A DNA stretch of 60,707 nt from Burkholderiales bacterium (GTDB lineage: Bacteria; Pseudomonadota; Gammaproteobacteria; Burkholderiales; SG8-39), in the NCBI GenBank assembly GCA_041904885.1, contig JAYRND010000065.1, positions 1-60,707 on the forward strand. Direction: 5' to 3'. The notes below the pieces were generated by a model, which was not told the DNA's origin, did not search any database, and saw only the letters and a program-made list of their open reading frames with translations. A program made the position numbers and the translations under genes. This document shows positions 35,949-49,877 of the stretch, piece by piece (position 1 is the stretch's first letter; each line of letters opens with the position of its first letter).

Positions 35949-37456
35949 TGCCGCACGCGCGCTTCCAGTGCCGCGCGCGCGGGCCCGGACCAGAATTGCG
36001 GATTCAGATTTTCTTCCGAGCGTGTGCTCAGGCCGTTGGTTGGCCAGGACGGGCCGCGCAGCCCGTGCCTGAGGCGCACCAGCTCCCAGCGACGGTCCAT
36101 CTCGGGAGAGCGCAATGCCAGGTGTCTGAGCGGCTCCAGCAGGAGGTGCGCCTCGGTGCCGGTATATACCGAGGAGAATGCGCGAAGTTTTTCACATTGC
36201 TCGATCACGGCACAGGTCAGCCACGACTCCGGGCTGGCGCCCGCCGCCAGCTTTTCGTAGCGCGGCGACGGCGAGAGAAATGGTTCGGCAAGGGTCTGCG
36301 GAGCGTCCGCGGCGACACGCTGGGCCGAGGCGAGAAGGATGTCCACGGCGACACCTCTCCAGCCCAGTTCCCACGCGAGGCGCGCAAGCGAGAGGCGCCG
36401 GGCCGGCATCGTCCGCGCATCGAGCGATTTCGAGACGCACCGATATGCCTGATACAAAAGTTCCAGACGCGCCTCGGGACCGCAACTCGCGTCCTGGGCA
36501 GCCGCGAAGGCGGCGAGGCCCTGCATATAGGTCGCCGCGTCCGAGCGGGTGAAGAAGCCGGCCTTTGCCGGCCAGCGCGCAGCAAGGGCGCTGGAATACG
36601 GCGCGCGGCGAGCATAGTCGGCCCAAGCGCCCTTCATGGGCGCCGCGCTGTCTTTTCCATCCGGCAGGGCGAGCACCCCCGCGCGCGCGAGCGCGCGTGC
36701 GCGGTCCGGCTTGCAGGCAAAGACATTGAGCAGGTAGCGGGAGTCGGAATTCAGCGGATCGAAAGGCGCCAGCGTCAGCGAACCCGGCAGGAGACGAAAG
36801 AACTGATAACCCAGTTCCGCAAGCGGATTGCGTGCTGCCTGCTCCGGCTGCCCGCTGATCTCCAGCATCACCAGCGGTGAACGGGACGCGAACAACCCCA
36901 TGCCCCCCCGGACCGCCTCGACTTCGTGTCCCTCGACATCCAGCTTCACGAAATCGATGTCGCCCCAGCCGCGCTCAGCCGCCATCTGGTCGAGAGTGAC
37001 GGCGCTCACCGCGACAGTATCTCCCGAGGCGCCGGGGCGGGCGATGGCGCTCAACTCGGTCTGGACGCCCGGCGCGAAGTTGACGACACCGACACGGTCG
37101 CTGACTGCGGCATCGATCATTTCCACCGATGCAAGTCCATTGAGATCCAGGCTGCGCCGCAGGCAGTCGGCTGCCACGGATATCGGCTCGAACGACCAGA
37201 CGCGGCCCTCGGCACCCGCCGAGCGCGCCAGGGCAATCGTATACAGGCCGTAGCTTGCGCCTACGTCGACGGCTCGCATGCCGGGGCGCATCCACCGCCT
37301 CACGAAGCGGATTTCGTCCTCGAACCAGTCCTCCTGCTCGAGCAGGACGTACGGCGTGACCTGATCGAGCGTGAGCGGGACGCAAATGCGGGCGCCGCCG
37401 GCGACGTTCAGCTCGATGCGCTCAGCCATTCGCGCTGGATCTCCCGGCCCGCTCAT
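35945..37456 (-). CDS. FkbM-family methyltransferase with ~250-aa C-terminal extension
   Basis: 503 aa. VDVGASYGLYTIALARS...FEP...DFVKLDVEGHEVEAVRG is the FkbM signature. The C-terminal half has no motif I recognise. Confidence 0.78.
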   Translation of the reverse strand: MSGPGDPARMAERIELNVAGGARICVPLTLDQVTPYVLLEQEDWFEDEIRFVRRWMRPGMRAVDVGASYGLYTIALARSAGAEGRVWSFEPISVAADCLRRSLDLNGLASVEMIDAAVSDRVGVVNFAPGVQTELSAIARPGASGDTVAVSAVTLDQMAAERGWGDIDFVKLDVEGHEVEAVRGGMGLFASRSPLVMLEISGQPEQAARNPLAELGYQFFRLLPGSLTLAPFDPLNSDSRYLLNVFACKPDRARALARAGVLALPDGKDSAAPMKGAWADYARRAPYSSALAARWPAKAGFFTRSDAATYMQGLAAFAAAQDASCGPEARLELLYQAYRCVSKSLDARTMPARRLSLARLAWELGWRGVAVDILLASAQRVAADAPQTLAEPFLSPSPRYEKLAAGASPESWLTCAVIEQCEKLRAFSSVYTGTEAHLLLEPLRHLALRSPEMDRRWELVRLRHGLRGPSWPTNGLSTRSEENLNPQFWSGPARAALEARVRQ

Positions 37457-47831: not shown

Positions 47832-49877
47832 TCAGCCCGACGATGGGCGCTTCCGGAATCCGCCCAGGATTCGGTCAAAAAAGGATTTTTTTTCCTGTGC
47901 GGCGCACCACGATCGCCACATGGCGCGATACGCGGATTCGAGGTCGCGCGTGAATGCCGCCGCATCCATGAGCGGGGATTGACGCATCCGCTCGCGCAAT
48001 CCGGAGCGCATCTTTTCCAGGCGCCCGGGGTCGCGGGCCAGGCCGATGGCGATTTCGGCATATCGATCCTGCGTTTGGGCGACTAGCTCATCCAGCCCCG
48101 CCGCATGGAGGATGCTGCGGCCCATGCGCGAGGCATGCGTTTCCCCGGCGAGGCTCACAACCGGCACGCCCATCCAGAGCGCCTCGCAGGTCGTCGTCGC
48201 GCCGTTGTAGGGATAACTGTCCAGCCCTATGTCCACATCGCGGTAGGACTGCAGGTGATCTTCGAGGCTCTCCTTCCACCCTGAGAGCGATAGCCGCTCA
48301 GGCGCCAACCCCAGATCCGCGAACCGTCGGCGAACGTCGTCGGCAATCGCCTTCTCGGCGAGAGGCGCCGACTTGATGACCAAGTGGGAGCCCGGCACCG
48401 CCTGAAGCACTCGTGCCCATAAGCGCACGGTCTCGTCCCCGATCTTGGCAAGGCTGTTGAACGACCCAAACGTGACGCGCCCTTCCCTGGACGCGGGTAA
48501 CGCTCCCGCATCCAGCTCCGTGCCCGGCCCACCGTAGCAGAAATAGCTGTTCGCCAGCCGCACCACCCGCTCCGCGCTCAGACTTTCGAATCCCTCCGGA
48601 TCCACTGACCAGTCGCTGATGCGGTAGTCCATCTGCGCCAAGCCAGTGGTGGTTGGATACCCAAGCCAGGTCGCCATCACGGGCGCGGGCTTGCGGGCAA
48701 ACACGCTTAGCCGGTTGTTCGCGCTGAATCCCCCCAGGTCCACAAGGATGTCGATGCGATCCTCGCGTACCCGCCTCGTCAGCGATGCATCGTCCAGGTC
48801 GAACACGTCGCGCCACTGGTCGACCGAGGCCTTGAGGCGGTCGGTCACGGCGTCAGCAAGCGAGGAACTCGAGTAGCCGAATATCTCCACCCGCCCGCGA
48901 TCGTGCCGGGCCAGCACCGGCTCGATGAAGTACGCGACCGAGTGGCGGCGCAGGTCCGCCGATACGTAGCCGATGCGCAGCCGCCGCTCCGGCTCGGGCG
49001 AGTTTTCGTGGAGTTGCGCATCCGGCGGCGGGCAGAACCGGCCCGCGTATTCCCGGTGGGCGGCGAGGATCTCGGTTGCCGAGCTTCCCGCCAGGCAATT
49101 CAAAAGGTAAGCGAGGTTTCCCTGCGCGACGCTCAATCCCGGATCCAGTGCGAGAGCCTCGCGATAGCAGTCCTCGGCCTCACGCTGCCGGCCGAGCTTG
49201 AAGAGGACTACCCCCAGGTCGTTGTGTGCCTCGGCGTATTCCGGCCTAAGTGCGATGGCCTTTCGCGCGCTTCGCTCGGCCTCGGTGAGCCGGCCCAGGC
49301 CCCGCAGCACAATCCCGAGGTTGCCGTGGGCCTCCGCGAAATCGGGCGCGCAGCGAATCGCGTTGCGAAAGCTGCGCTCTGCCTCGGCCTGCCTGCCGAG
49401 CTCGCTCTGCACGTTGCCCAGATTGTTATGCGCTTCGGCGAACTCCGGCTGCAGGCGCACTGCCTCCCGAAAGCTCTGCTCCGCGTCCGCGGGACGCTTC
49501 GCATTGCGCAGCGCTATGCCAAGATTGTTGTGCGCCGCTGCATAGTCCGGCTTCAGCGCAAGGGCGCTTCGAAAGCATTTGTCGGCGTCGGCGATTTCTC
49601 CCAGCACCTGGTGAATGACTCCCAGCGTATTCAGGAAATCCGGCCTCGCCGGTTCGATCCTTACCGCCTCCTCGGCCAGCTCGACTGCCTGATCGTGGTC
49701 GCCTCGCTGGTGCGCAATGGCGCCCAGCAGGTGCAGCGCATCGGCATACCCGGGACTGGCCAAGAGAAGCGCGCGGCACGCACGCTCGGCCTCGTCCCTA
49801 CGACCGGCCTGGTAGTGTCCCAGTGCGAGCGCCCACGCCCTGGCGCCTTCCGCGGATTGCCCGTCCGGCACTGTCAC
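47832..49877 (-). CDS. TPR + SPINDLY/OGT-like (GT41-like) glycosyltransferase, third paralog
   Basis: Track ORF 47832..50861 trimmed to GTG 49877. It has about 8 canonical TPRs (AEAHNNLG repeated), then LRIGYVSADLRRHSVAYFIEPVLARHDRGRVEIFGY...DILVDLGGFSANNRLSVFARKPAPVMATWLGYPTTTGLAQMDYRI. Confidence 0.8.
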   Translation of the reverse strand: MTVPDGQSAEGARAWALALGHYQAGRRDEAERACRALLLASPGYADALHLLGAIAHQRGDHDQAVELAEEAVRIEPARPDFLNTLGVIHQVLGEIADADKCFRSALALKPDYAAAHNNLGIALRNAKRPADAEQSFREAVRLQPEFAEAHNNLGNVQSELGRQAEAERSFRNAIRCAPDFAEAHGNLGIVLRGLGRLTEAERSARKAIALRPEYAEAHNDLGVVLFKLGRQREAEDCYREALALDPGLSVAQGNLAYLLNCLAGSSATEILAAHREYAGRFCPPPDAQLHENSPEPERRLRIGYVSADLRRHSVAYFIEPVLARHDRGRVEIFGYSSSSLADAVTDRLKASVDQWRDVFDLDDASLTRRVREDRIDILVDLGGFSANNRLSVFARKPAPVMATWLGYPTTTGLAQMDYRISDWSVDPEGFESLSAERVVRLANSYFCYGGPGTELDAGALPASREGRVTFGSFNSLAKIGDETVRLWARVLQAVPGSHLVIKSAPLAEKAIADDVRRRFADLGLAPERLSLSGWKESLEDHLQSYRDVDIGLDSYPYNGATTTCEALWMGVPVVSLAGETHASRMGRSILHAAGLDELVAQTQDRYAEIAIGLARDPGRLEKMRSGLRERMRQSPLMDAAAFTRDLESAYRAMWRSWCAAQEKKSFFDRILGGFRKRPSSG

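Follow-up and report, generated by a model that had tools for sequence, protein, structure and literature searches.

A type IVa pilin cassette with a large PAP2_3/MFS-like/spermidine-synthase-fold membrane protein as candidate pilin-modifying enzyme in a Burkholderiales bacterium

The stretch of DNA analysed here (the window) comprises the 60,707 nt of contig JAYRND010000065.1 (assembly GCA_041904885.1) of a Burkholderiales bacterium and has a G+C content of ~68%. It contains a type IVa pilin locus, in which two pilin genes, pilA1 and pilA2, are followed on the same strand by the gene for a large membrane fusion protein (hereafter the fusion). The original prediction, made from the sequence of the window, had joined this locus and three genes for OGT-like TPR glycosyltransferases (OGT1, OGT2 and OGT3) into one candidate undescribed filament or envelope modification system. 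Gene models were checked within the window against the Pfam and NCBIfam cut-offs and by the G+C content at third codon positions (GC3). All of the predicted genes are real open reading frames (ORFs) with coding-type GC3 (0.78-0.86); they were found in the places originally given, with shifts of no more than a few bases, and Pfam recovered the domains attributed to them. The pilin locus contains the following features:

42754-42769, plus strand: sigma54-type -24/-12 promoter-like site before pilA1, TGGCACGATCATTGCG
42828-43271, plus strand: pilA1, type IVa major-pilin paralog, 147 aa; Pilin 9.4e-20, N_methyl 1.5e-10 (Pfam)
43443-43458, plus strand: sigma54-type -24/-12 promoter-like site before pilA2, TGGCATGATGATTGCG
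43534-43977, plus strand: pilA2, second pilin paralog; Pilin 1.5e-18, N_methyl 5.3e-10 (Pfam)
44000-44033, plus strand: intrinsic-terminator-like hairpin in the gap between pilA2 and the fusion gene, with a 14-bp stem, then UUUUGAUU
44118-47816, plus strand: fusion accessory gene, 1232 aa; PAP2_3, 12-transmembrane (TM) MFS-like and spermidine-synthase-fold modules

The two pilins are identical at 121 of 147 positions (82%) and score 72 and 68 bits (pilA1 and pilA2, respectively) with the Pfam Pilin domain, for which the cut-off is 22. Both possess the hallmarks of type IVa pilins, namely a class III signal with a G/F cleavage site, Glu5 and a hydrophobic N-terminal helix; the globular domain with its disulphide loop is marked by the C-terminal Cys127...Cys146 pair together with the ...KYLPSACR end. 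The promoter-like sites TGGCACGATCATTGCG and TGGCATGATGATTGCG are located 59 and 76 nt 5' of the respective ATG codons; the former is a consensus match only, with one mismatch to TGGCAC-N5-TTGCW, and the latter likewise matches the sigma54 -24/-12 consensus. Since the pattern is not enriched across the window (16 matches versus 25.8 expected), it is the placement of the sites alone that speaks for them.

The stop codon of pilA2 is separated from the start of the fusion gene by 140 nt. The hairpin begins 23 nt after this stop codon, has a folding energy of -28.2 kcal/mol (z = -6.3 versus shuffled sequences) and is accompanied by a U-tract. A consensus terminator scan of positions 42200-44200 reported no terminator; it missed the hairpin because the A/U extension of the stem takes up the U-tract expected 3' of it. 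Hairpins of -13 to -31 kcal/mol were also found 3' of the pilin stop codon in 17 homologous pilin-fusion cassettes from other organisms, with a U-tract present at ~15 of the 17 and the accessory gene starting 58-297 nt further on in 14 of them. The conserved unit is composed of the pilin gene, a terminator hairpin and the fusion gene, in this order. An accessory gene on the same strand, directly 3' of the pilin gene and with a Rho-independent terminator in between, is the layout of the 'pilin, Rho-independent terminator, accessory gene' cassette of P. aeruginosa, Dichelobacter (D. nodosus), Eikenella and Xanthomonas, in which the terminator is thought to attenuate the expression of the accessory gene (PMC11841053).

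The linkage between the fusion and pilins was surveyed in 79 genome loci, which were fetched and scanned with the window proteins and with a pilin-motif search; 28 of these encode PAP2-bearing homologs (25 with enough upstream sequence to be judged) and 51 encode MFS-spermidine synthase homologs devoid of the PAP2 module. Nine further metagenome loci were judged from precomputed annotation. Loci from genomes and metagenomes are referred to below by L-codes where they have to be told apart. A pilin gene was found directly upstream and on the same strand in 20 of the 34 evaluable PAP2-bearing homologs (13/25 in genomes and 7/9 in metagenomes). The genome loci in question include those of Iodobacter, Rubrivivax, Rhodoferax, Accumulibacter, Undibacterium, Giesbergeria, Oxalobacteraceae, Acinetobacter sp. 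ANC 5054 and Moraxella. By contrast, the motif search yielded no pilin in flanks of up to 10 kb at any of the 51 loci with a PAP2-less homolog, mostly from Myxococcota, Binatia, Acidobacteriota and Verrucomicrobiota; the background of this search was a single match in 696 kb of control loci.

The pilin-fusion pair recurs across Burkholderiales, Rhodocyclales, Iodobacter, Acinetobacter and Moraxella, that is, in both Beta- and Gammaproteobacteria. In Acinetobacter it is flanked by LemA-TPM-TPM ... bacterioferritin genes, in Iodobacter by Maf and SPOUT genes and in Rhodoferax by PilB. Because the flanking genes are wholly different between lineages, the pair moves as a unit. Copy numbers match as well, two pilins accompanying two PAP2-bearing fusions in each of the loci L088 and L081. 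Synteny and co-duplication suggest that the fusion is dedicated to its cognate pilin, and the original view that a neighbour of pilA is likely to be its accessory gene is thereby supported for the fusion, given the recurrence of the pair amid unrelated flanks and in the cassette layout. In Acinetobacter sp. ANC 5054 (L018) the fusion gene lies directly 3' of pilA, and in Acinetobacter strain M2 the gene in this position is that of the Wzy_C pilin glycosylase, pgyA (PMC3735195); the fusion therefore occupies the slot of TfpO/PgyA. In Iodobacter sp. BJB302 (L003), another pilin gene and the gene of a TfpO/PglL-like protein with Wzy_C/Wzy_C_2 come directly after the pilA-fusion pair, at 13482-15738, so that two different pilin-accessory pairs stand in tandem in one genome.

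The window shares gene order, strand and terminator with the cassettes of P. aeruginosa and Acinetobacter (pilA with tfpO/pilO/pgyA, tfpW-tfpX, tfpY or tfpZ), and in both the accessory protein is a polytopic inner-membrane protein and the cassette moves between genomes and goes with the type of pilin. However, the fusion is unrelated to the Wzy_C O-oligosaccharyltransferases, to the GT-C protein TfpW and to the small proteins TfpX/Y/Z. As had been predicted, no canonical Wzy_C-type pilin O-oligosaccharyltransferase was detected above threshold among the ~45 window ORFs scanned; the polytopic proteins encoded at 34371-35948 and 29508-31217 were assigned to no family, and Wzy_C_2 matched the TPR part of OGT3 below threshold (17 bits versus 28.5).

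The fusion is made up of three modules with approximate borders at aa 1-420 (PAP2_3), 440-870 (12-TM MFS-like) and 900-1232 (spermidine-synthase fold). The PAP2_3 domain (PF14378) was recognised at aa 176-345 (8.7e-18; 65.2 bits versus a cut-off of 27) and Spermine_synth with 4.6e-9 (36.5 bits versus 22.9), both in Pfam. The NCBIfam model NF037959, 'fused MFS/spermidine synthase', gave 88.5 bits against a cut-off of 40; Pfam MFS_1 gave no match in the window fusion and a weak one in some homologs. Full-length homologs of the fusion, ~1,220 aa long, number in the hundreds, and the family of the PAP2 module comprises 1,593 representative clusters at E <= 1e-3.

An AlphaFold2 model built with 79 homologs attained a predicted local distance difference test score (pLDDT) of 91.5 and a predicted TM-score (pTM) of 0.88 for residues 33-1232, and the model of residues 1-440 reached 95.3 and 0.93, respectively. 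The N-terminal module is modelled as helical, with ~10 helices, and its best structural neighbour is yeast Aur1 of the Aur1-Kei1 complex (9ivc_A; Foldseek probability 1.00, E = 0.05, target TM-score 0.44), followed by the inositol phosphorylceramide (IPC) synthase 9vj4_A (probability 0.93), in agreement with the Pfam assignment to PAP2_3. The other Foldseek matches are noise or weak, soluble acid phosphatases, PgpB and G6PC1 appearing weakly among them. A sequence search of the PDB with the PAP2 region produced no meaningful match; Aur1 was reached by fold comparison alone. The fusion has in common with Aur1/IPC synthases (9ivc, 9vj4) the PAP2_3 family, the His...His-x3-Asp set and the 'HYxxD' motif, but the identity is only 12-13% and the module of the fusion, with its ~10 helices, is joined to two further modules.

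Residues R282, N283, P286, S287, H289, H328, Y329 and D332 are invariant among the 79 homologs, which are 30-68% identical over the PAP2 module, and the catalytic motifs P286-S287-x-H289 (C2) and H328-Y329-x-x-D332 (C3) are among them. Positive-inside statistics over the same homologs showed a clean alternation, with the PAP2 motifs outside and both ends of the 12-helix module inside, which predicts a periplasmic orientation of the invariant His-His-Asp site. In Aur1-type enzymes a glycerophospholipid serves as donor of the phospho-headgroup and a hydroxyl as its acceptor, the transfer taking place at the extracytoplasmic face, and Aur1 works via a phospho-histidine intermediate.

The C-terminal 330 residues form a complete spermidine-synthase (PABS) fold: according to Foldseek, 50 of the 50 best PDB matches are (thermo)spermidine synthases or aminopropyltransferases, with E-values starting at 1.8e-8 and target TM-scores of 0.6-0.76. 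As in SpeE and putrescine N-methyltransferase, an N-terminal beta domain is combined with a Rossmann domain, and the GxGxG motif, the acidic residue 1010 (after beta2), the adenine contact D1042-G1043 and E1060 at the position of the catalytic base are conserved. Unlike in SpeE, GYGTG replaces GGGDG, the Asp of the loop being exchanged for Thr, and EISSIW replaces DSSDP, with the loss of its second Asp (alignments to 6qmm, 3bwb and 2o05). The domain also scores far under the speE equivalog cut-offs (NF002956, 140 versus 472; NF002010, 61.5 versus 260; TIGR00417, 48.4 versus 249.6). With neither the motifs nor the equivalog scores of the family, the fusion was rejected as a bona fide spermidine synthase. 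We take the Asp of the GGGDG loop to be the residue of spermidine synthases that contacts the amine of decarboxylated S-adenosylmethionine (dcSAM) and serves as discriminator. Loss of this Asp lets SpeE-like enzymes use S-adenosylmethionine (SAM), as in putrescine N-methyltransferase; judging from the motifs, a methyltransferase-like activity of the domain would be as plausible as aminopropyl transfer. A cytoplasmic location of the domain is favoured by the conserved cofactor residues and by the Arg-rich segment 867-884.

On balance, and with moderate confidence, we favour the view that the core of the locus is a type IVa pilin cassette with a dedicated membrane enzyme that modifies the pilin, likely by transfer of a phospho-headgroup at the periplasmic face. 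The domain identities, the conservation of catalytic residues and the synteny of the cassette are direct observations, from which we infer that the pilin is the substrate, which chemistry is used and what the MFS-like and synthase-fold modules do. Two pilA paralogs, each behind a putative sigma54-type promoter, would be followed by an attenuating hairpin and by a large inner-membrane enzyme dedicated to those pilins. By analogy to Aur1, the PAP2_3 module would take the phospho-headgroup from a membrane glycerophospholipid and pass it to a hydroxyl group on the pilin while this is membrane-anchored and not yet assembled, the acceptor thus being a protein hydroxyl instead of ceramide; the MFS-like and SAM/dcSAM-binding modules may prepare, alkylate or flip the donor lipid. 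The product would be a phospho-form modification. The proposed outcome is like that of Neisseria PptA/PptB, which place phosphoethanolamine, phosphocholine or phosphoglycerol on Ser residues of the pilin in the periplasm, with a membrane lipid as donor, but it would be reached by an unrelated enzyme. PptA belongs to the alkaline-phosphatase/sulfatase (EptA-like) superfamily, not to PAP2, and its gene is not next to pilE; there is no homology between PptA and the fusion, and the likeness is one of functional analogy only. A more far-reaching proposal, doubtful as a whole though possible, is that the fusion constitutes a new, widespread and self-contained assembly line, in which the cytoplasmic SAM/dcSAM domain would alkylate the headgroup, the MFS-like module flip the lipid and the Aur1-like module transfer the headgroup to a pilin hydroxyl. 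If so, phospho-form-decorated pili would be present in Betaproteobacteria, Acinetobacter and Moraxella, with a chemistry unlike that of PptA or of any oligosaccharyltransferase.

Not every pilin accessory protein is an enzyme: some aid assembly and leave the pilin unmodified (PMC11841053), and the fusion might, like TfpY/TfpZ, serve the pilin as a chaperone or assembly factor without catalysis, its enzyme-like domains being relics, as the loss of the canonical aminopropyltransferase residues from the synthase-fold domain would fit. This we regard as very improbable, since the conservation of both the PAP2 catalytic positions (the His, His and Asp residues as well as the Arg-Asn and Pro-Ser pairs) in all 79 homologs and the cofactor positions of the synthase fold (GxGxG, acidic residue 1010 and D1042-G1043) argues for active enzymes. 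A second alternative accepts the enzyme and changes its substrate. The nearest characterised PAP2_3 relatives, the Aur1/IPC synthases, act on lipids, many stand-alone and fused members of the family have no pilin neighbours, and a distant synthase-like membrane protein (14966-17347) is encoded inside the glycan cluster of the window. The fusion could accordingly be an envelope-lipid enzyme, in which a phosphosphingolipid or phospholipid headgroup transferase is combined with methylation or aminopropylation of the headgroup and with flipping, its position beside pilA reflecting co-regulation or hitch-hiking. However, the adjacency to pilins is far over background and specific to the PAP2-bearing forms, the pair shifts between unrelated contexts, retains its terminator and co-duplicates with pilins, and the fusion sits in the slot of known pilin-specific transferases, all of which makes an envelope-lipid role quite unlikely.

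Several observations weigh against a pilin-modifying enzyme. Approximately 40% of the evaluable PAP2-bearing homologs have no adjacent pilin, among them those of L089, L013, L048 and five Myxococcota loci, and the PAP2-bearing family is therefore not obligatorily linked to pilins. Stand-alone PAP2_3 proteins of this family (~420 aa) outnumber fusions by 120 to 30 among the best 150 matches and occur also where there are no pilins (L091). With 0.05 and 0.13, the E-values of the Foldseek matches to Aur1-type structures are weak. The Arg-rich segment is followed at aa 884-896 by a short hydrophobic helix (13-17 residues), which leaves room for a periplasmic synthase domain. Finally, the region 3' of pilA is a known recombination hot spot, and some of the co-localisation could be passive.

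Two side observations concern the relatives of the fusion. In L091 (8001-11896), where there is no pilin in the vicinity, an FkbM-type methyltransferase has a stand-alone PAP2_3 protein of this subfamily on either side; PAP2_3 and a methyltransferase fold are thus found together in unfused form as well. The protein encoded at 14966-17347 (minus strand) is a distant 793-aa membrane protein, in which a spermidine-synthase-like Rossmann domain is placed between TM blocks; it matches the fusion in BLASTP with E = 7e-5 and Spermine_synth below threshold (E = 0.0084; Pfam). Its position suggests that the synthase-like membrane family also works in envelope-glycan contexts.

Pilin accessory genes set the surface chemistry of the pilus and thereby affect phage susceptibility, immune recognition, adhesion and assembly. 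To our knowledge, the characterised accessory proteins are exclusively of the glycosyltransferase type (TfpO, TfpW) or small assembly factors (TfpX/Y/Z). If pilin modification by the fusion is true, the combination of a lipid phosphotransferase with transporter-like and SAM-fold enzyme modules would represent a new chemical class of pilin modification, and the large 'fused MFS/spermidine synthase' family, named so far by similarity, would gain a function. The pilin/accessory cassette as such is already known; what is new is the architecture and likely chemistry of a widespread accessory protein. No pilin accessory protein with a PAP2_3, MFS-like and spermidine-synthase-fold architecture was reported in the literature searched, in which no relevant publication linking pilin to spermidine synthase or PAP2 came up. 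The analysis also sets apart from the conserved core the more eye-catching OGT-like genes, which are arranged around it together with other neighbours as follows:

37453-40395, minus strand: OGT1, 980 aa from the ATG at 40395; TPR, Glyco_transf_41 1.6e-40 and GT4/Glycos_transf_1 2.3e-19 (Pfam)
40382-42229, minus strand: OGT2, 615 aa; SPINDLY-type TPR and GT41 3.5e-49 (Pfam)
42265-42561, plus strand: 98-aa cytoplasmic ORF, divergent partner of OGT2
47832-49877, minus strand: OGT3, 681 aa; TPR and GT41 1.6e-56 (Pfam); convergent with the fusion
31221-37456, minus strand: rest of the OGT2/OGT1 operon; FkbM, GT-C-like 525-aa protein, GtrA, FAD amine-oxidase-like protein and GT2
49907-53975, minus strand: GAF-HD-GYP protein and GAF-MshEN-PilB-like ATPase, a pair conserved beside the pilin-fusion cassette in this clade

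The three OGT genes are true paralogs (34-39% identical), and each of them encodes a TPR array followed by a GT41 domain, with no signal peptide or TM segment. The gap between the convergent fusion and OGT3 genes is indeed 15 nt long (47817-47831). The best solved relative of OGT2 is Arabidopsis SPINDLY (7y4i, E = 1.7e-89), followed by bacterial OGT (5djs), human OGT (1e-44) and XcOGT, and OGT2 keeps the FNNxxK and PYNGTTTTCE motifs. From what is known of OGT, we take the His of DF..H, the Lys of FN..xK and the NGTTT phosphate loop to be the catalytic-site residues of GT41; they are present in OGT2 and OGT3, as in SPINDLY, and absent from OGT1, in which DFRDEE, LHETSS and RARASN take the place of the DFRRH, FNNTIK and YNGTTT of its paralogs. 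The GT41 module of OGT1 is degenerate and the GT4 domain fused to it appears intact; judged by these motifs, the former is probably a pseudo-enzyme scaffold for an active GT4 extender.

Synechococcus elongatus has a TPR-GT41 Ogt, the gene of which neighbours tandem pilA genes; PilA glycosylation and normal piliation depend on it, and ogt genes lie next to pilin genes in 38% of 201 cyanobacterial genomes (PMC9306852). The likeness of the cyanobacterial Ogt/OgtA to the present OGTs extends to the TPR and GT41 domains, the lack of a secretion signal, the tandem pilA genes and the small hypothetical gene in between. Yet here the adjacency is limited to a single betaproteobacterial clade, OGT1 and OGT2 share an operon with glycan genes, and the paralogs number three, one of them with a degenerate GT41 module fused to GT4. 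With this precedent, the word 'undescribed' is only partly apt for the OGT part of the locus. By analogy to the cyanobacterial Ogt, the GT41 enzymes may glycosylate pilin in this clade.

It could then be supposed that the GT41 (and GT4) enzymes glycosylate the prepilin in the cytoplasm and that the fusion acts at the periplasmic face, where it would attach or process a group. GT41 genes are found beside the pilin/fusion locus in L080 (89% identity of the fusion), L081 (69%), L092 (68%), L083 (57%) and L094 (48% identity of OGT2), and GT41/TPR genes thus stay by the pilin locus through rearrangements in the window and in these relatives; in L083, two GT41 genes, two TPR plus GT9-like genes and an epimerase gene lie upstream of the pilin on the same strand. 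However, GT41 genes are absent from L084, L085, L088 and L090, the fusions of which are 47-59% identical to that of the window and which keep the PilB-like, HD-GYP, pilin and fusion genes, and from all 28 PAP2-bearing genome loci, so that no pilin-fusion cassette beyond the close clade contains one. Relatives of the GT41 catalytic domain number >7,500 and are spread over many phyla. Among the 80 closest metagenome relatives of OGT2, a pilin is encoded near one and an FkbM methyltransferase near seven, and the nearest non-syntenic relatives occur in a YcaO/RiPP (ribosomally synthesised and post-translationally modified peptide) context and in a dnaK context. In addition, OGT2 and OGT1 belong to an operon of glycan genes and OGT3 to one of PilB-like/HD-GYP genes, the cytoplasmic enzymes and the globular domain of the pilin are on opposite sides of the inner membrane, and OGT1 is devoid of the conserved His, Lys and TTT residues. 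Joint action of the OGTs and the fusion on the pilin is thus unlikely. Two wider generalisations were rejected on the same counts: that GT41 enzymes are general partners of the fusion and that OGT and pilin genes are generally linked in Proteobacteria. The original union of the three OGT-like genes and the fusion in one system is not supported, GT41 genes accompanying the pilin and the fusion in close relatives only, and OGT1 and OGT2 largely follow the glycan locus independently of pilins. Outside the conserved cassette, the three SPINDLY-type GT41 proteins are best regarded as cytoplasmic protein glycosyltransferases of a clade-specific variable island.

Orthologs of OGT3 are fused or adjacent to a 2-oxoglutarate-Fe(II) (2OG-Fe(II)) oxygenase (prolyl-4-hydroxylase-like) in L081 (13728-16445), L082 (3904-4671) and L092 (7179-7850), and the OGT3 of the window is without such a domain; the association hints at hydroxylation and subsequent glycosylation of a cytoplasmic protein. 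In L083 (939-3865), two 'TPR-only' proteins are encoded between the GT41 genes and the pilin; their weak C-terminal Glyco_transf_9 matches (E = 1.4e-4 and 0.0099) indicate that they may represent a second type of TPR-glycosyltransferase in the island. TPR-only neighbours are also encoded in L084 and L088, with additional domains that matched no assignable family.

The 98-aa ORF belongs to no Pfam or NCBIfam family. Its homologs in L080, L081, L088, L093, L094 and L106 are divergent from, and 55-90 nt away from, the OGT2 ortholog or a TPR gene (35-90 nt with the window counted in), and this pairing holds whatever the orientation to the pilin. The ORF is a conserved divergent partner of the OGT2/TPR gene and not of the pilin; its product could regulate the TPR glycosyltransferase or even be its substrate.

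OGT2 and OGT1 head a run of seven minus-strand genes with overlaps of 4-26 nt or gaps of <=33 nt, in the order OGT2, OGT1-GT4, FkbM, 525-aa polytopic protein, GtrA, FAD amine-oxidase-like protein and GT2 with four C-terminal TMs. The start of OGT1 (40395) overlaps OGT2 by 14 nt, and 4-nt overlaps of start and stop codons are found at 37453/37456, 35945/35948 and 34371/34374. The operon adjoins an ATP-binding cassette transporter (Wzm/Wzt) glycan cluster. The 525-aa protein matches PMT/GT-C below threshold (E = 0.0074); together with GtrA and GT2 (GtrB/DPMS-like) it is encoded at 31221-35948 (minus strand), sharing the operon with OGT2 and OGT1. Such a trio normally carries out periplasmic glycosylation from a polyprenyl-phosphate sugar, and its acceptor here could be O-antigen or a protein.

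OGT3 is the last gene of the PilB-like/HD-GYP operon and starts 29 nt after the HD-GYP stop codon. The PilB-like ATPase (790 aa, GAF-MshEN) scores under the PilB equivalog cut-off, and the PilB-like/HD-GYP pair precedes the pilin-fusion pair in L084, L085, L088 and L090. The larger block at 49907-56614 (minus strand) contains genes for the PilB-like ATPase, the GAF-HD-GYP protein, a class-II phosphodiesterase/metallo-beta-lactamase-type protein, FHA and PP2C; in the same four relatives, a block of this type is situated directly 5' of the pilin-fusion pair, all on one strand, and a CHASE2 cyclase and a rhodanese protein binding cyclic nucleoside monophosphates often join it in relatives. The PilB-like/HD-GYP block suggests that the pilus module is under cyclic-nucleotide control.

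Genes of SoxA/TsdA type and a SoxB-like gene (1441-4564 in the window) are 40 kb away from the pilin locus here and 1-3 genes away from the fusion in L088 and L090. GC3 is lower in the OGT, FkbM and pilin genes (0.78-0.86) than in the PilB-like and HD-GYP genes (0.87-0.88). Because of this lower GC3 and of the closeness of the Sox genes to the fusion in L088 and L090, the glycan/OGT block at 14-42 kb has the look of a variable island that was inserted next to the pilin locus.

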